Below, piece by piece: positions 172 to 29,605 of a DNA stretch of 29,605 nt. Position numbers and translations under genes: made by a program. Under the pieces are notes generated by a model. That model had not been told where the DNA came from, did not search any database, and saw only the letters and a list, made by a program, of their open reading frames with translations. Position 1 is the first letter of the stretch; each line of letters opens with the position of its first letter. Origin of the DNA: a virus (Duplodnaviria; Heunggongvirae; Uroviricota; Caudoviricetes); IMG/VR virus record IMGVR_UViG_2547132415_000023, one strand, 5' to 3'.

Positions 172-1221
172 TTATGCAACCTCTGCCGCCATATTGTCGC
201 CAACATACAGCGATAACGGATTAAGGGTTACAGCTTGTTCAAGGTGGTCAGGAGCAAAGTGTGCATACTTCATTGTTTCTCGAATATTGGCATGCCCGAG
301 AATTTTCTGCAGTACCAGTATATTCCCGCCGTTCATCATAAAATGCGCACCAAAAGTATGACGCAAAACGTGCGTCTTCTGCCCTTCCGTCAATTCAATA
401 TTCGTTAGTTTGAGCATCTTCTTAAACTCCTGATAGCAGGGTTTAAACATTCTGCCTTGACGTACGGACAACTCGTCGTACAGCCATTTAGGAATAGGAA
501 CTGTGCGATTCTTCTTACCTTTGGTTTTGGTGAACGTCAGTTTATATGGAGAAAGTTGAGGGCGGGTCAATCTCTCCGCTTCCCCCCATCGAGCGCCGGT
601 TGCAAGGCACACCTTAACAATCATGGTGAGGTCTTCTTTGCCGTATTGCTCACAGGCTCGAAACAGCTCCGGGAGCTGAGACAAAGTTAGCCAGGACATT
701 TCTTTCTCAGCCTCTTTGAATACTCGGATCCCATCAAGTGGATTGGGTAGGCTCCACTCCCCTAACCGGCGGAGCTCATTAAACACTGCTTCTAGGTATT
801 GTTGTTCGCGATTGACGGTTATAGGTTTGGCGATCCATTTCGAGGGGTCTTTATGATAACCGTTGTCTATTTCACCACGTAATCGACGGTCACGATAATG
901 AGCCCAGTCTTTCGCGGTAAGGCGAGATGCAATCGGGTCACCAAGCCCATTACATACGATTTGAAGCTTTGCTAACCTCGACTTACTGGCGACTAACGCT
1001 TGACCGTGCAAATTGTGCCAAAGCTGAATAATCTCGCTTAAGCGTCGGCGGTCTTCTTTCTTGCCAAGCCACGGCTTATCTTCACTCTCGCTTTTGGTAA
1101 ATGCTTCGAATGCCTCGGCCTCACCTTTGGTATTGAATTGCCGACGTATACGCCGCCCTTCTCGACCATTTGGATAGAGCTCGCATAACCATTTGCCATT
1201 TTTTTGCTTACTTACAGTCAT
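172..1221 (-). CDS. int: P2/186-type tyrosine integrase
   Basis: 349 aa ORF. N-terminus MTVSKQKNGKWLCELYPNGREGRRIRRQF and C-terminal HVLRHTF..GGNILVLQKILGH..MKYAH motifs (R..HxxR..Y catalytic region) are typical of P2/186 integrases. Terminal position next to the repressor gene fits. Confidence 0.92.
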   Translation of the reverse strand: MTVSKQKNGKWLCELYPNGREGRRIRRQFNTKGEAEAFEAFTKSESEDKPWLGKKEDRRRLSEIIQLWHNLHGQALVASKSRLAKLQIVCNGLGDPIASRLTAKDWAHYRDRRLRGEIDNGYHKDPSKWIAKPITVNREQQYLEAVFNELRRLGEWSLPNPLDGIRVFKEAEKEMSWLTLSQLPELFRACEQYGKEDLTMIVKVCLATGARWGEAERLTRPQLSPYKLTFTKTKGKKNRTVPIPKWLYDELSVRQGRMFKPCYQEFKKMLKLTNIELTEGQKTHVLRHTFGAHFMMNGGNILVLQKILGHANIRETMKYAHFAPDHLEQAVTLNPLSLYVGDNMAAEVA

Positions 1222-1590: not shown

Positions 1591-2451
1591 TTATACGTGT
1601 TTTTCCAATGTGAAAACTACAACCCCGGCAGGCGTAATGTCGGTAATGTTGCATTCAAACTCAGCAGACTTATTTGACAACCTGACTTTTCCACCAGGTA
1701 AACGAATTACATCAAAAACATCAAGAGCGCCGTCGATATCAATTAACCAGCGACCATTACTTATATTCGAAGCAGAACAGTCGACAAGCCAAGAGGCAGC
1801 TACACCGTCAACAAAAATCAATTCCCCTGAGTTAGAAGGAATCATTGAGGGGTCAGGATGCCACGTTCCTGCATCCTTAAGCTCACCAGATTCAAGACGA
1901 GATTTTTTAATAGAAAAACCAGATGTGACATCTTCCCTGTTAGCTCGCATTTGCCCCTTGCCTGTTGCTAACCATTCCAGTGACGTATCGGTATCAAGAG
2001 CGCATGTAACAACAACATCACCAGGGAAAAAATCTCGCCTTACCCATGTGCTAATTGTGCCAGAGGAAATGCCGAGCAAATCACCGAGCTCCTTTTGCAT
2101 GGTAAAGCCATACGCATCAAGAATCCTACGCAAAACGGTTTTACCACCATTCGTCATAATCTCGTCATAAAGCTCTTTGCCTTTTAACTTGCAACTGGCT
2201 CGCTCGTGATTTGCATTTGCAAGCTCTCCATTTACAAGCCAATTGATATCAGCTCCCGTGTCAAGACAACACCTAACTATGACATTGCCAGGTATTGCAT
2301 CACGCTGAACCCAGCCGCTAACGCTGTGTTTAGCGATACCTAGCAGGTCAGCCAAATCCTTTTGCATCTTGACCCCATAGGCTGACATTAAGCGTTCCAA
2401 TACGCCGTTCGTTGCACTAACACGCCACTGAACATCAAGCTCAGAACTCAT
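1591..2451 (-). CDS. cI: 186-type CI immunity repressor with tandemly duplicated N-terminal HTH domain
   Basis: 286 aa. Residues ~14-75 (VLERLMSAYGVKMQKDLADLLGIAKHSVSGWVQRDAIPGNVIVRCCLDTGADINWLVNGE) and ~102-163 (VLRRILDAYGFTMQKELGDLLGISSGTISTWVRRDFFPGDVVVTCALDTDTSLEWLATGK) are clear internal repeats of a phage CI-type HTH domain. Divergent from the apl/cII operon and upstream of int, as in 186. Confidence 0.85.
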   Translation of the reverse strand: MSSELDVQWRVSATNGVLERLMSAYGVKMQKDLADLLGIAKHSVSGWVQRDAIPGNVIVRCCLDTGADINWLVNGELANANHERASCKLKGKELYDEIMTNGGKTVLRRILDAYGFTMQKELGDLLGISSGTISTWVRRDFFPGDVVVTCALDTDTSLEWLATGKGQMRANREDVTSGFSIKKSRLESGELKDAGTWHPDPSMIPSNSGELIFVDGVAASWLVDCSASNISNGRWLIDIDGALDVFDVIRLPGGKVRLSNKSAEFECNITDITPAGVVVFTLEKHV

Positions 2452-2460
2452 AAAAACCCC

Positions 2461-2497
2461 TACAGATAATTTTATGGGTGTTTACAGAAAACTTTTT
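2461..2497. promoter_or_regulatory. Direct repeats in the cI-apl divergent promoter region (candidate Apl/CI operator sites at pR/pL)
   Basis: TACAGATAATTTT (2461-2473) and TACAGAAAACTTTT (2483-2496) are spaced about two helical turns apart in the 121-bp gap between divergent cI and apl. Confidence 0.3.
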
Positions 2498-2572
2498 ACG
2501 ATCTATAGTGGCATTCATCGACCAAGATGCACACCACTGCACTACATTTCAAACAACAGGAGATAATGCGAT

Positions 2573-2944
2573 ATGTCAGATGCAAAATCAATCTCGACGC
2601 ACGACTCGCAAAACTCACAAAATCAAACTGTGCTGCTAGATCCAACACAGTTTGATGCCATCGTTACCGCCATGCTGCCAGCTCTACAGACAATGATTCG
2701 CTCCGCTATGTCAGACACGATGACTGTGAAAGACTTCGCCGCTACTCGCGGTGTTAGCGAGCGTCTGGTCTGGCAATGGCTCGATGAGGGAGTCCTTCTC
2801 AAAGCTCCGACCAAAGACTTTTCCAACAAAGAGGAAGCTGCTAAACGAAGCCGAACCCTCGTAAACGTAAAAGCATGGCGCGATAAGCTGACTCAACAAG
2901 CGATTGATTGTCGCTACATCGACCAGCGCACCGCTCTTAACTGA
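2573..2944 (+). CDS. apl: Apl/Cox-like excisionase and transcriptional regulator
   Basis: 123 aa, first gene of the rightward early operon, RBS CAGGAG 8 nt upstream. Internal HTH-like segment MTVKDFAATRGVSERLVWQWLDEG. Longer than classical Apl/Cox (~90 aa), so the N-terminal 30-odd residues may be an extension or the true start may be internal. Confidence 0.6.
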   Translation: MSDAKSISTHDSQNSQNQTVLLDPTQFDAIVTAMLPALQTMIRSAMSDTMTVKDFAATRGVSERLVWQWLDEGVLLKAPTKDFSNKEEAAKRSRTLVNVKAWRDKLTQQAIDCRYIDQRTALN

Positions 2945-2976
2945 ATTTGATTATGCAAGTTAGAGGGAATTTAACC

Positions 2977-3486
2977 ATGTTTGATTTTCAGGTTTCCAAA
3001 CATCCCCACTATGACGAAGCATGCCGCATTTTCGCACAGCGTCACAACATGGCGAAGCTGGCCGAGCGTGCAGGTATGAACGTTCAAACGTTACGTAACA
3101 AGCTCAACCCGGAACAGCCTCACCAGTTCACGCCGTCTGAATTGTGGCTGCTGACTGACCTGACCGAAGACTCAACCCTCATTGATGGTTTTTTAGCGCA
3201 GATTCACTGCCTACCATGCGTGCCGGTTAATGAGTTGGCTAAAGACAAATTGCAGTCTTATGTCATGCGCGCAATGCGTGAACTCGGCGAACTGGCGAGC
3301 GGCGCGGTATCTGATGAACGTCTGACCATTGCCCGTAAGCACAACATGATTGAAAGCGTTAACTCCGGCATTCGCATGTTGTCATTGTCGGCTCTGGCGC
3401 TGCATGCACGTCTGCAGACTAATCCAGCTATGTCGAGCGTGGTCGATACCATGAGCGGTATTGGCGCATCGTTTGGTCTGATTTGA
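2977..3486 (+). CDS. cII: 186-type CII lysogeny-establishment activator
   Basis: Sequence from MFDFQVSKHPHYDEACRIFAQRHNMAKLAERAGMNVQTLRNKLNPEQPHQF is CII-like with an HTH. I chose the ATG at 2977; the track ORF starts at 2947 in the same frame. Confidence 0.8.
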   Translation: MFDFQVSKHPHYDEACRIFAQRHNMAKLAERAGMNVQTLRNKLNPEQPHQFTPSELWLLTDLTEDSTLIDGFLAQIHCLPCVPVNELAKDKLQSYVMRAMRELGELASGAVSDERLTIARKHNMIESVNSGIRMLSLSALALHARLQTNPAMSSVVDTMSGIGASFGLI

Positions 3487-6812: not shown

Positions 6813-6828
6813 CTGTATAAATATACAG
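6813..6828. promoter_or_regulatory. LexA (SOS) box overlapping the promoter of the downstream small ORF
   Basis: CTGTATAAATATACAG (CTGT-N8-ACAG), within TACTGTATAAATATACAGTA, a 19/20 match to the palindromic enterobacterial SOS-box consensus. 22 bp upstream of the ORF starting at 6850 (RBS GGGAGGG); possible -35 TTGCCA at 6797-6802. Confidence 0.75.
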
Positions 6829-6849: not shown

Positions 6850-7032
6850 ATGGTTGGCGAACATTTCAGCCGAACGCAGCAAAAGTGGGCTTGTGTGCAA
6901 TTTATTGCCGAGGTATCTCTGATTGCAAACTGCAAGCCATCAGACTTAAAGCTCGCGCTCACTCTCATTGCAGACCTAGCAAACAGCGAAAATAACGAAA
7001 CCGAAGATGATAATTTTTATAAGGCTGATTAG
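6850..7032 (+). CDS. SOS-controlled small protein, candidate Tum-like antirepressor N-terminal part
   Basis: 60 aa ORF directly behind the LexA box with a strong RBS. Ends at TAG 7030-7032, in frame with the following DinI-like ORF. Confidence 0.5.
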   Translation: MVGEHFSRTQQKWACVQFIAEVSLIANCKPSDLKLALTLIADLANSENNETEDDNFYKAD

Positions 7033-7035
7033 ATT

Positions 7036-7266
7036 ATGAGAATCAATATCACGTTGGATAAAGAGCAAAAATTAGGGCAACAGATCATTGATGCTTTTCA
7101 GAATGAAATAACACATCGAGTACAATGCGTTTTTCCTGCAACAAAAGTTAACGTTAAGAAAGGGTCAATGACTAGTGTAGAGGCTATCGGATTCGATAAA
7201 GAGACGGACAGAGAAACATTAGGCAGCATATTACAAGAGATTTGGGAAGACGATAGCTGGCGTTAA
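7036..7266 (+). CDS. DinI-family protein
   Basis: 76 aa: MRINITLDK...IIDAF..EITHRVQCVFP...ILQEIWEDDSW matches the DinI pattern (MRIEVTI...RRIQYAFP...ILQETWE..DDW). Same frame as the preceding ORF. Confidence 0.75.
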   Translation: MRINITLDKEQKLGQQIIDAFQNEITHRVQCVFPATKVNVKKGSMTSVEAIGFDKETDRETLGSILQEIWEDDSWR

Positions 7267-8239: not shown

Positions 8240-9568
8240 ATGAATTGTAATGAACTTTTTTATTCCGCTGACAACCATGCATTAACGTTGCATGAAAGAA
8301 CAAAGTTATCTACGGTTGTTTTAGATAAAGGCATTACAAAAAAGAATGAATTAATAGAGTTTTTGAGAGAGGAATTAAAAGGGTCATTTGGTTGCGACGT
8401 TAAGTTTTGGTTGCAAGGATCATACAAAAGTCACACTCTCATTAAGCCTGTTGATAAGTTTTCTTCATATGATATTGATGTGGGCATTTATTTGTTCTTT
8501 GATGCAGAGGCTGAAGAGATTAATTCAAAGGATGTAAAGGATACGTTGAAAGATGCTTTACTATCTTACTGCGAAATAAATAACGAGGCGAAGATTCAGG
8601 AGTCAAAGAATGCGTGTGAGGGATTAATATTCTCCTCCTTTCTTACAATCGACACCCCTATCTATTATAAAACAACGACAAAAGTAAAACTTGCAACAGA
8701 TAAAGGTTGGAGTGATAGCGATCCAAAAGCTATACAAGACTGGTTAACAAATTCACATGCTACAAAACCAGCTAGAGCATTAATGAAACGGCTCGTCCGT
8801 TACTTTAAAGCATGGGTTAATGTACAGTGGCACGGTACTTCATTTAAAAAAATACCTTCGTTAGCGATAAATGTCCTAGTTGCTAATAACTTAAGTATCC
8901 ATGATAGAGAGGACGATTGTTTTATATATACAGTGTTAGCTATTTGTGAGCAATTAGAGCGCTCAATGGAAGTAGAGAATCCTCTTAATGGCACCAATTT
9001 GCTTGCGATGCCTGATGATGCTTTAACTTTCGCGCATCAAAAGCTTCAACAATTGAAGAAAGTTTGTATAGATTGTATAGATGCCAACGAAAATGAAAGG
9101 AATATAAATTTTTCTAATTTATTCCAACATTATTTCCCTCAGGTAACGATCGTATCAAACGGAGGGGGAACTGGTCTGCCAGCGATTACTACAACCCCAG
9201 AAATATCTGTCTGTCGTTATGATAAACATGGTTCCCACATTGAAACTGTCTTAACGGATCAGTTAACGGTTGATAAAGGTGACTCATTAACATTCACCAT
9301 TTGTAATCCTGGGGCTTTTAGCCCTTATGCTCAGACGAAATGGACGGTTAGAAATGTTGGTAGCCAAGCTAATGATGCCAATGATATAGGGCACATTGAA
9401 TATGGAAAACCCAACGAAAGTCATAAACGGGGAACGTCTTATACTGGCTCGCATACGATGGAATGTATGGTTACTTACAATGGCGCTGTTTTAGGTTTAA
9501 AAGTTATTCAAGTTATAGTACGGCCTGCAATTTCTGTTAAAAGACCTATTAGAAAGTTTTGGAGATGA
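8240..9568 (+). CDS. cGAS/DncV-like (SMODS-type) nucleotidyltransferase with C-terminal extension; candidate signal synthase of a defence module
   Basis: 442 aa, strong RBS AGGAGG at 8231-8236. Pol-beta NTase signature G60-S61 ... D78-I-D80 (QGSYKSHTLIKPVDKFSSYDIDVGIYLF), with further acidic residues downstream. About 140 C-terminal residues are Gly/Thr/Ser-rich and beta-like with no recognised match. Low-GC gene. Confidence 0.7.
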   Translation: MNCNELFYSADNHALTLHERTKLSTVVLDKGITKKNELIEFLREELKGSFGCDVKFWLQGSYKSHTLIKPVDKFSSYDIDVGIYLFFDAEAEEINSKDVKDTLKDALLSYCEINNEAKIQESKNACEGLIFSSFLTIDTPIYYKTTTKVKLATDKGWSDSDPKAIQDWLTNSHATKPARALMKRLVRYFKAWVNVQWHGTSFKKIPSLAINVLVANNLSIHDREDDCFIYTVLAICEQLERSMEVENPLNGTNLLAMPDDALTFAHQKLQQLKKVCIDCIDANENERNINFSNLFQHYFPQVTIVSNGGGTGLPAITTTPEISVCRYDKHGSHIETVLTDQLTVDKGDSLTFTICNPGAFSPYAQTKWTVRNVGSQANDANDIGHIEYGKPNESHKRGTSYTGSHTMECMVTYNGAVLGLKVIQVIVRPAISVKRPIRKFWR

Positions 9569-28439: not shown

Positions 28440-29605
28440 TAACGGGGATGGCAATTGACGCCGGTGCCAGCCTTGTACCGGCTTTTATGCTGACGCTGAA
28501 CAGTCAGGACATTACCAGCAACTTCAGCGACCGGCTGATTTCTCTCACCATGACGGACAATAGGGGCTTTGAAGCTGACCAGCTCGACATTGAGCTCGAT
28601 GACACCGATGGGAAAGTCGAGTTACCCCTGCGCGGGGCAGTGCTGACGTTGTGGCTTGGCTGGCAGGGTTCGGCGCTGCTGAATAAGGGGGATTTTACGG
28701 TCGATGAGATTGAGCACCGGGGGGCTCCTGATACCCTGACCATCCGTGCGCGCAGCGCGGACTTTCGCGGCACGCTAAATTCCAGGCGTGAAGAGTCATG
28801 GCACGACACCACCATCGGCGAACTGGTCAGTACCATCGCAAAGCGCAACAAACTGACGGCCAGCATTGCGGAATCGCTGAAAAAAATCCCGGTACCGCAT
28901 ATCGACCAGTCGCAGGAATCCGACGCGGTATTTTTGAGTCGACTGGCTGACCGCAACGGGGCAACGGTATCGGTGAAGGCAGGGAAACTGTTGTTTCTGA
29001 AAGCCGGTAGTGCGATGACGGCCAGCGGCAAACCCGTCCCGCAAATGACGCTGACCCGCAGTGATGGTGACCGTCATCAGTTTGCCATTGCCGACCGTGG
29101 GGCTTATACCGGCGTCACTGCTAAATGGTTGCACACCAAAGACCCGAAGCCACAAAAGCAGAAAGTAACGCTGAAACGCAAGCCAAAAGAGAAGCACCTG
29201 CGCGCACTGGAACACCCAAAAGCAAAGCCGGTCAGCAAAAAGACAAAGGTCAAAAAAGAACAGGAAGCACGTGAGGGTGAGTACATGGCCGGTGAAGCCG
29301 ATAACGTGCTGGCGCTGACGACGGTCTATGCCTCAAAGGCACAGGCGATGCGCGCCGCTCAGGCTAAGTGGGATAAACTGCAGCGAGGCGTTGCGGAGTT
29401 TTCAATCACACTGGCGCTAGGGCGAGCGGATTTATTTCCTGAGACGCCTGTACGCGTGTCAGGCTTTAAGCGCGTCATAGACGAGCAGGCATGGTTAATC
29501 AGCAAGGTGACCCACAACCTCAATAATAACGGTTTCACGACGGGCTTAGAGCTTGAGGTTAAACTCTCCGATGTGGAGTACAGCTCAGAAGAAAATGAGG
29601 AGTGA
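28436..29605 (+). CDS. D: Tail protein gpD
   Basis: 389 aa (P2 D ~387 aa), overlaps the U stop (ATGA); stop codon is at the window end. Confidence 0.85.
   Translation: MITGMAIDAGASLVPAFMLTLNSQDITSNFSDRLISLTMTDNRGFEADQLDIELDDTDGKVELPLRGAVLTLWLGWQGSALLNKGDFTVDEIEHRGAPDTLTIRARSADFRGTLNSRREESWHDTTIGELVSTIAKRNKLTASIAESLKKIPVPHIDQSQESDAVFLSRLADRNGATVSVKAGKLLFLKAGSAMTASGKPVPQMTLTRSDGDRHQFAIADRGAYTGVTAKWLHTKDPKPQKQKVTLKRKPKEKHLRALEHPKAKPVSKKTKVKKEQEAREGEYMAGEADNVLALTTVYASKAQAMRAAQAKWDKLQRGVAEFSITLALGRADLFPETPVRVSGFKRVIDEQAWLISKVTHNLNNNGFTTGLELEVKLSDVEYSSEENEE

Follow-up and report, generated by a model that had tools for sequence, protein, structure and literature searches.

Tandem helix-turn-helix domains in the CI repressor of a PSP3-type, 186-like phage and a proposed division of labor between immunity-specific and shared operators

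The lysogeny switch of coliphage 186 is among the best-studied alternatives to that of lambda. In its logic, one repressor wheel chooses among strong sites at the promoter pR, weak sites at the promoter pL, and the distal sites FL and FR, all via the same helix-turn-helix (HTH) domain. Here, we describe the cI gene of a phage genome stretch of 29,605 nucleotides (IMG/VR record IMGVR_UViG_2547132415_000023), referred to at its full length as the window. This gene encodes the immunity repressor of a PSP3-type, 186-like temperate phage, and its product carries two HTH domains, an N-terminal one (HTH1) and an inner one (HTH2), ahead of a C-terminal domain for oligomerization (CTD). The comparisons below suggest that HTH1 reads the operators at pR and HTH2 the distal sites, so that the window CI would offer a natural dissection of the dual specificity of 186 CI.

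The title of Shearwin et al. (2002), as cited in PMC3675496, has the single HTH of 186 CI reading two unrelated sequences, and the citing paper also describes what FL and FR do in regulation. In the 186 record (U32222), pR carries TCTC..GAGA-type sites, and FL, FR, and pB, the last at the late-activator promoter, carry ATTCAC-N5-GTGAAT. The window resembles 186 in several respects: its CI has a homologous HTH and CTD (186 CI structures 2fjr and 2fkd); the layout of int, cI, pR, an apl-like gene, and cII is shared; dyads stand at the positions of FL (inside cI), FR (between apl and cII), and pB; and a LexA-controlled Tum/DinI-like region is present. By analogy, pR and pL would also stand face to face as they do in 186. 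The window differs from 186 in that its CI contains a pair of paralogous HTHs, of which one is hypervariable and the other conserved, in that its distal sites read CTTGCA-N2-TGCAAG, and in that its FL site lies in the codons of an interdomain linker.

A comparison of P2-like switches, the sole paper we found to discuss PsP3 CI, noted the greater length of this protein and attributed it to "a longer C-terminal domain" (PMC3448106) without describing its two HTH domains, and the two-HTH architecture corrects this account. The two HTHs as such are not new knowledge, as the PSP3 sequence has long been public and domain databases flag both; in the searchable literature, we found no description of the two CI heads or their operator logic. 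Tandem HTHs also occur in the repressor of Clostridioides difficile phage phiCDKH01_17, which has two XRE HTH domains (PMC11172241) and resembles the window CI in this respect but belongs to a different family. The C repressor of phage P2, the immunity repressor of a related P2-like phage, binds direct repeats (PMC2995052). This small protein is unrelated to CI, with which no alignment is possible (PMC3448106).

Pfam matches PF07022 (Phage_CI_repr) to cI in two stretches (whole-protein E = 1.3e-52; best stretch, aa 106-169) and PF16452 (Phage_CI_C) to aa 180-274 (E = 1.3e-20), and a purpose-built profile places the HTH domains at aa 13-77 and 102-166; overall, the two Phage_CI_repr domains span aa ~14-78 and ~103-169. 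When aa 1-90 were compared with aa 91-286 by BLASTP, 34 of 66 residues were identical (52%; E = 3e-23), far above chance. The AlphaFold2 model (mean predicted local distance difference test [pLDDT] score, 75) contains two five-helix bundles, with helices at aa 17-74 and 103-163, followed by a beta-rich CTD at aa 181-283; the linkers at aa 78-90 (pLDDT <50) and 169-177 are disordered. HTH1 has the complete five-helix fold and retains the invariant scaffold residues R20, Y25, W47, R50, and W71. An earlier, sequence-only reading of this DNA had proposed two roughly 50% identical HTH segments, and these results bear it out: both segments are true CI-type HTHs, the second being no mere linker. Its figure of ~192 aa with one N-terminal domain for 186 CI was also correct (192 aa, single HTH).

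The top Foldseek match of the model is 186 CI (2fjr; E = 6e-18), and the CTD superimposes on 2fkd with a target-normalized TM-score of 0.88 and a root mean square deviation of 1.6. Because full-length 186 CI (2fjr) is colinear with cI aa 105-279, which correspond to 186 CI residues 9-182 (E = 1e-21), HTH2 and the CTD together are the canonical repressor, and the extra module is aa 1 to ~100. With a PF07022-type five-helix HTH, a PF16452 CTD, and a gene order (int, cI, apl-like, cII) that matches the annotated 186 record, cI belongs to the 186-type CI family. Its two HTHs and 286 aa, against a canonical single HTH and ~190 aa, constitute a departure at the level of the subfamily rather than grounds for exclusion from the Pfam family. 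An NCBIfam scan of cI gave no family-level match. Pfam found no Peptidase_S24 match in cI, the CTDs of LexA and lambda CI were only distant fold matches in Foldseek, and cI, which lacks the Ser-Lys dyad and Ala-Gly cleavage site, is not of the LexA/lambda-CI self-cleaving type.

The window CI is 100% identical to that of E. coli phage vB_EcoM-613R3 and 98% identical to CI of Salmonella phage PSP3 (Eganvirus; AAN08403.1). Identities to the SEN1, RCIP0057, Midge, SW9, and SI22 repressors are 98, 77, 76, 73, and 73%, respectively, and all of these proteins are double-HTH repressors with no difference in kind among them. The order HTH1-linker-HTH2-CTD, a length within ~270-295 aa, and the HTH2 helix ISSGTISTW identify cI as the CI of PSP3-type Eganviruses, and the 8 kb around it are likewise PSP3-like (int, a DUF2511 gene, cI, apl-like, cII, fil, and replication gene A). 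The best 120 matches in a search of 5.8 billion proteins come from Enterobacterales and are nearly all of 270-290 aa, two being shorter and partial. A scan of one genome per species yielded 80 loci, of which 57 are double-HTH, nearly all of them in Enterobacterales (including Citrobacter, Enterobacter, Kosakonia, Pantoea, Brenneria, Pectobacterium, Dickeya, Lonsdalea, Rahnella, Buttiauxella, and Serratia), and ~20 are 196-aa single-HTH genes. The architecture is nevertheless not the norm of the whole 186-CI family: among the best 150 representatives at 50% identity, single-HTH proteins number 107 and double-HTH proteins 27, with one further protein having three HTHs and another having six weak stretches. 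A gene fusion or assembly artifact was considered as well and is ruled out by the occurrence of the same architecture in 57 independent genomes and 7 phage records.

In a domain tree, the HTH1s of PSP3-type proteins form one clade and the HTH2s another, which they share with the 196-aa single-HTH proteins. Because HTH1 is closer to HTH2-type domains, its nearest kin outside its own clade (52% identity), than to the N-terminal domain (NTD) of 186 CI (39%), its sequence fits an origin by intragenic duplication of the ancestral N-terminal module. The duplication proposed by the sequence-only reading therefore stands, but not as an event peculiar to this phage: it is old and fixed in a large subfamily (57 of 80 loci and seven phages). 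The single-HTH CIs of Rahnella, Ewingella, Chimaeribacter, Franconibacter, and Citrobacter prophages (e.g., L060-L083 and P0133) correspond to HTH2 plus the CTD. HTH2 is up to 83% identical to their HTH (94% to that of fragment P0127), with the same helix LSSGTISTWVRR and the same palindrome, but they have no HTH1, and their palindrome, located 75 nt ahead of where the HTH begins, is itself the operator at pR. Other double-HTH lineages most likely arose by independent duplications. In the P0184/P0196/P0198/P0238 group, the two HTH copies are sisters within each protein, with up to 69% identity, and the CIs of Klebsiella Elveevirus and Kapieceevirus form a separate double-HTH group; both groups share the Pfam family and a CI_C-type end with the window CI, as separate lineages. 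The Klebsiella, P0184-group, and phiCDKH01_17 tandem-HTH repressors are not known to split specificities. Two remote relatives show further arrangements: P0227 joins two Phage_CI_repr HTHs to a C-terminal domain that resembles S24 peptidases (LexA type), and P0236 has three tandem HTHs without a CI_C domain.

The two HTHs differ sharply in conservation. Among 46 unique double-HTH homologues, the mean entropy of helix 3 is 0.40 bits in HTH2 versus 1.27 bits in HTH1. The HTH2 recognition helix (ISSGTISTW) is nearly invariant, and that of HTH1 is hypervariable, with variants such as IAKHSVSGW, VPSNSVSTW, IHANNVSSW, VPANNISSW, and IAKSNVASW. HTH2 as a whole (0.51 bits) is also better conserved than the CTD (1.53 bits). 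DNA comparison of the window with Midge shows where this variability is concentrated. Identity is 75-95% over most of HTH2 and the CTD, falls to 55-70% at 2200-2400 (HTH1 coding) and to 17-32% at 2400-2480 (the 5' end of cI and pR), and reaches 100% from 2520 rightwards; SW9, L006, and L007 show a Midge-like pattern of divergence from the window. Strong divergence of the window from Midge, SW9, or L006 occurs in this block and nowhere else, and because it is restricted in this way to HTH1 coding and pR, the two appear to form a compact immunity cassette.

A further pattern concerns the palindrome CTTGCA-N2-TGCAAG. In single-HTH relatives with an HTH2-type helix (LSSGTISTW), 18 of 20 loci have CTTGCATTTGCAAG, or a variant of it with one mismatch, inside the 17-nt spacer between TTGACA (-35) and the -10 element of a promoter directed away from cI, that is, in the pR spacer, where the CI operator is expected. 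In double-HTH loci, the palindrome is missing from pR and is placed at FL-, FR-, and pB-equivalent positions instead. With up to two mismatches allowed, 37 of 61 loci have it at +150 to +250 nt (+192 or +201) relative to the HTH1 start, and 20 of 61 have it 450-550 nt upstream of that start (the gene context of this FR-position copy having been checked for the window and 186); it also stands at ~+2750 in 3 of 3 phage genomes analyzed, and only ~6 matches occur elsewhere in roughly 400 kb. These positions coincide with those of FL, FR, and pB as annotated in the 186 record.

A position weight matrix (PWM) scan of the 29.6-kb window scores the FL-like and FR-like sites (Table 1) at 22.2 and 18.1 bits, with the next best site at 9.2 bits; the scan is partly circular, as the matrix was built in part from these same site types. 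The window stops exactly at the stop codon of gene D, and the pag/ogr promoter just outside it was therefore studied in six related phages (PSP3, SEN1, 613R3, Midge, RCIP0057, and SW9, which represent three HTH1 types); in all six, CTTG(C/A)AAATGCAA overlaps the -35 element. The three placements that mark the PSP3-type subfamily, in linker codons, the apl-cII spacer, and the pag promoter (the last seen in these six phages), are thus all present, and PSP3-type relatives have the same palindromes there as the window. Nothing conserved flanks the distal sites, which are plain dyads of 14 bp. Half-sites are altered (TGTAAG and TTTAAG) in 4 of 4 loci in which HTH2 residue T135 is substituted (GTMSAW and GTISSW); although few independent events, perhaps two, are involved, this is suggestive of a coupling between changes in the HTH2 helix and changes in the half-site.

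The FL-position site, present at +192 or +201 in nearly all double-HTH loci, falls at the start of the disordered linker and is constrained as a DNA element rather than as a peptide motif. Among the 46 genes, the two Ala codons in the palindrome are GCA in 33 of 34 and 24 of 27 sequences, and their entropies (0.19 and 0.50 bits) are the two lowest of the 127 columns compared, each at least four-fold degenerate (median, 1.77 bits). Of the other codons, Asn is AAT in 39 of 39 sequences, Leu is always CTT, and Phe is TTT in 27 of 29. In L052 and L082, an Asn-to-Phe replacement preserves the dyad (TTTGCATTTGCAAA), and in Midge-type and Pectobacterium-type genes the dyad lies 9 nt further on, in different codons. 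Its spacing also bears on its origin. Of 15 single-HTH sequences, 14 have the palindrome beginning 75 nt ahead of the HTH profile start, and among double-HTH genes the distance from its beginning to the HTH2 start is 75 nt in 17 sequences and 72 nt in 15; moreover, the helix before HTH2 (LYDEIMTNGGK) aligns with the N-terminal leader of the 196-aa single-HTH CIs (MQLDELEGGK). Because of this equal spacing and leader-like helix, we infer that a unit of operator, leader, and HTH was duplicated and that the inner operator and leader became the interdomain linker, which would now serve as FL. If this is true, the FL site inside cI is an ancestral pR operator with its 5' leader turned into a protein linker. 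In Klebsiella phage ST11-VIM1phi8.4, of a separate double-HTH lineage, GTCACAA-CAA-TTGTGAC lies in interdomain-linker codons (L087 3544-3570), and 11 nt of it, one arm, recur as a partial copy close to pR/pL (L087 3110-3120); an operator hidden in an interdomain linker may be a recurrent solution.

The picture at pR is less uniform. The candidate pR of the window is directed away from cI and lies relative to the cI start as 186 pR does. Its spacer GAAAACTTTTTACGATC is the best-conserved operator candidate for the window HTH1 type: only this -10/-35 spacer, GATCGT(T)AAAAAnTTnnCTGTAAA, is conserved between window/PSP3 and the Pantoea relatives that share the HTH1 helix. The sequence-only reading had pointed to direct repeats near 2461-2497, which exist (Table 1), and had suggested them as CI operators, in a geometry that recalls P2 C. 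Their core, TWWTCTGTA, occurs twice in the window, both times in the repeats (0.35 expected; 3 of 100 shuffles reach 2), and the window holds no distal copies of this core or of the repeat 13-mer. However, the promoter-distal copy varies despite an identical HTH1 helix (TATGTA in PSP3, TCTATA in L004) and is absent from the Pantoea relatives with that helix, which makes the direct repeats weak operator candidates and leaves P2-like direct-repeat binding unsupported in this phage.

Other HTH1 types have dyads at pR. Kosakonia has ATCGCAAATGCGAT and a second dyad 21 bp further, and in Pectobacterium and Brenneria ~36-bp dyads are centered on the -35 element, with outer and inner elements ~10 bp apart. 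The most informative pair is L024 and L020, which share the HTH2 helix ISTATISTW and differ by one residue of HTH1 helix 3 (ASW versus AGW). Because their outer half-sites at pR (ATCGC...GCGT in L024 and ATCCG...CGGTT in L020) differ in step with HTH1 while the HTH2 helix is constant, the pR operators track HTH1. At the window pR, the palindrome has no counterpart (the highest PWM score over 2440-2520 is <0), nor, when mirror positions were compared by eye, was there a long dyad of the Pectobacterium type. A GATC (Dam site) at 2499-2502, directly upstream of the pR -10 element (CGATCTATAGT), is conserved across most HTH1 types (L001-L058) and may be part of an operator half-site or a methylation-sensitive promoter feature. 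The putative pL was placed by analogy with 186, whose pL is annotated at the apl start as TTGCGA-17-CATGAT; the window counterpart does not reach the threshold of the promoter scan. Two weak palindrome-like sites lie in this region, at 2579-2592 and 2614-2627 (PWM scores of 2.7 and 7.5 bits).

We propose that HTH1 reads the immunity-specific pR, that HTH2 reads FL, FR, and the pag promoter, and that the CTD multimerizes as in 186 and bridges them, a reading to which we assign a probability of about 0.6. An ancestral single-HTH CI, made of an HTH and a wheel-forming CTD, would have gained a second, N-terminal HTH copy. The conserved HTH2 pair of each CI dimer would bind the 14-bp CTTGCA-N2-TGCAAG at FL, FR, and the pag/ogr promoter, and the hypervariable HTH1 pair would bind phage-specific pR operators (~2460-2510 in the window) and so set immunity. 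The CTD would assemble dimers into a 186-like multimer that bridges pR and the distal sites; by its similarity to the 186 domain, a 14-mer wheel wrapping or looping DNA is plausible. The two domains, their conservation, the placement of the palindromes and their synonymous-site constraint, and the mosaic boundaries are observed here; we infer the assignment of HTHs to sites, the multimerization, the looping, and the origin of FL from an ancestral pR operator and leader.

Several observations weigh against this proposal. The assignment of HTHs to sites comes from comparing phylogenetically related sequences with few independent instances of covariation (for HTH2, perhaps two). For the window-type HTH1, pR shows no clear dyad and the spacer alone is conserved, and the AlphaFold2 monomer model gives no confident interdomain geometry (predicted TM-score, 0.38). 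A few lineages (Lonsdalea, L036) have no recognizable FL site, and FR copies are degenerate in several lineages. Finally, an (A/G)ATCG element abuts the -10 element in most HTH1 types and the Kosakonia ATCGCAAATGCGAT contains the GCAAATGC core of the HTH2 palindrome; both HTHs may therefore read pR.

This last point leads to the most serious competitor, in which every operator is bound by HTH1 and HTH2 next to each other, in the manner of bipartite readers of the POU, Myb, or AraC type. A dimer would then contact four successive major grooves, the distal palindromes would use the HTH2 pair only, and no split between pR and distal sites would exist. The ~36-bp dyads on the -35 element in the Pectobacterium and Brenneria types, with their ~10-bp element spacing, speak for such composite operators alongside the shared (A/G)ATCG and GCAAATGC elements, and the long flexible linkers would permit the arrangement. 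Yet the outer and inner pR elements of L024 and L020 both change with HTH1 while HTH2 is identical, the window pR lacks a site of the palindrome type, and the distal sites have no conserved element beside their plain dyads; we regard composite operators as unlikely, at somewhat better than one chance in five. HTH1 might instead be a degenerate copy that does not bind DNA, serving for docking of a Tum-type antirepressor, autoinhibition, or extra dimerization, with HTH2 doing all of the recognition. In keeping with this, HTH2 occupies the place of the single DNA-binding domain of 186 CI and is far better conserved, and the LexA box with its Tum/DinI-like open reading frames (ORFs) means that an antirepressor target must exist. 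Such a role is hard to square with the full five-helix fold and retained scaffold residues of HTH1, with a variability concentrated in helix 3, which is the signature of a specificity determinant, or with the codivergence of pR with HTH1 and its want of an HTH2-type site in the window; binding by HTH2 only would also give all PSP3-type phages a common immunity, despite 17-32% identity at pR. We consider this reading improbable.

Least probable of all, and in our judgment very much so, is that the palindromes have nothing to do with CI and are instead bound by a host factor, Apl, or CII or mark a recombination hotspot at module boundaries. The FL site does stand exactly at a boundary between variable and conserved modules, but the same palindrome fills the -35/-10 spacer of pR directly upstream of single-HTH cI genes, its positions copy the mapped 186 CI sites FL, FR, and pB, and its half-sites change when the HTH2 helix changes; for CII, the separate dyad at the cII start (ATGTTTG-N13-CAAACAT) is the likelier site.

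If our proposal is true, separate heads for pR and the distal sites let the two functions mutate independently, two DNA specificities combined in the one HTH of 186 CI would here be naturally divided, and immunity specificity could diversify by the swapping of a ~300-bp cassette while the rest of the circuit is left undisturbed. More tentatively, at slightly less than even odds, the "private" HTH1 head and pR would be such a swappable cassette (~2200-2510), and the "public" HTH2 head would read a regulon shared by heteroimmune PSP3-type phages. Genomes of Klebsiella, Enterobacter, Salmonella, and E. coli commonly carry heteroimmune prophages, and the model predicts cross-talk between them: when a heteroimmune relative superinfects, the resident prophage could shut off its late-gene activator but not its pR, which would be a new form of cross-immunity.

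Table 1. Coordinates of cI, the domains it encodes, candidate regulatory sites, and adjacent switch genes in the window
Feature	Position	Strand	Description and basis
int	172-1221	(-)	
cI	1591..2451	(-)	286 aa: HTH1, linker, HTH2, linker, oligomerization domain; ORF and Pfam
C-terminal oligomerization domain	1603..1914	(-)	Phage_CI_C; PF16452
HTH2, HTH at the ancestral position (aa ~106-169)	1945..2136	(-)	Colinear with 186 CI NTD in 2fjr
HTH2 recognition helix (aa 128-139)	coding 2035-2070	(-)	ISSGTISTWVRR
Interdomain linker (aa 79-101)	2149..2217	(-)	Disordered part, then short helix aa 92-100
HTH1, added N-terminal HTH domain (aa ~15-78)	2218..2409	(-)	Pfam and own profile
HTH1 recognition helix (aa 39-50)	coding 2302-2337	(-)	IAKHSVSGWVQR
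Putative immunity-specific block	2200..2510	strand-neutral	HTH1 coding and pR operators; window versus Midge identity
FL-like operator, candidate HTH2 site	2210..2223		TTTGCATTTGCAAG, complement CTTGCAAATGCAAA; codons L77-N81, ~278 bp left of pR
Direct repeats	2461..2495	(+)	TACAGATAATTTT at 2461-2473 and TACAGAAAACTTT at 2483-2495, 22 bp apart; second overlaps pR -35
Candidate lytic promoter pR	2481..2509	(+)	TTTACA, 17 nt, TATAGT; consensus scan 10/12
Putative lysogenic promoter pL	2563..2627	(-)	TTGATT, 17 nt, CATTAT, facing pR; analogy with 186
apl/cox-like gene	2573..2944	(+)	123 aa, first of pR operon; ORF
FR-like operator, candidate	2946..2959		TTTGATTATGCAAG, complement CTTGCATAATCAAA; between apl-like stop (2944) and cII start (2977)
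cII	2977..3486	(+)	PF06892, E = 3.7e-46

The apl-like gene has no Pfam match; its PsP3 homologue was called a singleton (PMC3448106), and its Midge homologue is annotated as Cox on HHpred evidence (Midge record). Heteroimmune phages share 97-100% identity over its first ~70 bp and the leader ahead of it; for the remainder of the gene, identity to Midge is 85-97%. The 5' part of the gene contains a 14-nt inverted repeat at 2622-2656 (ATCAAACTGTGCTG / CAACACAGTTTGAT; 93% complementary, 7-nt gap), in a region common to PSP3, Midge, and SW9. The dyad at the cII start, a candidate CII site or pE element, lies at 2977-3003, and in 186 the CII site and pE are likewise at the cII start. CII was also considered as the binder of CTTGCA-N2-TGCAAG and was dropped because this different dyad occupies the cII start.

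Between cI and int, a DUF2511 (YebY-like) gene with a signal-peptide-like N terminus lies at 1244-1654 on the (-) strand (PF10709, E = 3.7e-17). The listed ORF overlaps the 3' end of cI, and its PSP3 homologue (339 nt) implies an internal start near 1582. The window begins just beyond the att side of int and does not include the ogr/pag gene and promoter. It is a mosaic with respect to vB_EcoM-613R3 (ON470592.1), 99% identical in the early region and 91% at the gene D end (29000-29605).

Downstream of the switch, a perfect LexA box (CTGTATAAATATACAG) at 6813-6828 (+) stands upstream of a 60-aa ORF (6850-7032), which is followed after 3 nt by a 76-aa DinI-family ORF (7036-7266, +; PF06183, E = 1.4e-17). 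By analogy, this region resembles the SOS-controlled Tum antirepressor region of 186, split in two ORFs. Downstream of replication gene A, a 442-aa ORF at 8240-9568 (+) matches a DncV-like nucleotidyltransferase (PF21654, E = 3.8e-18) and an AGS-C sensor (PF18134, E = 2.2e-17) and looks from its sequence like a cyclase of the CBASS (cyclic oligonucleotide-based antiphage signaling system) type, carried as a cargo gene of the prophage.

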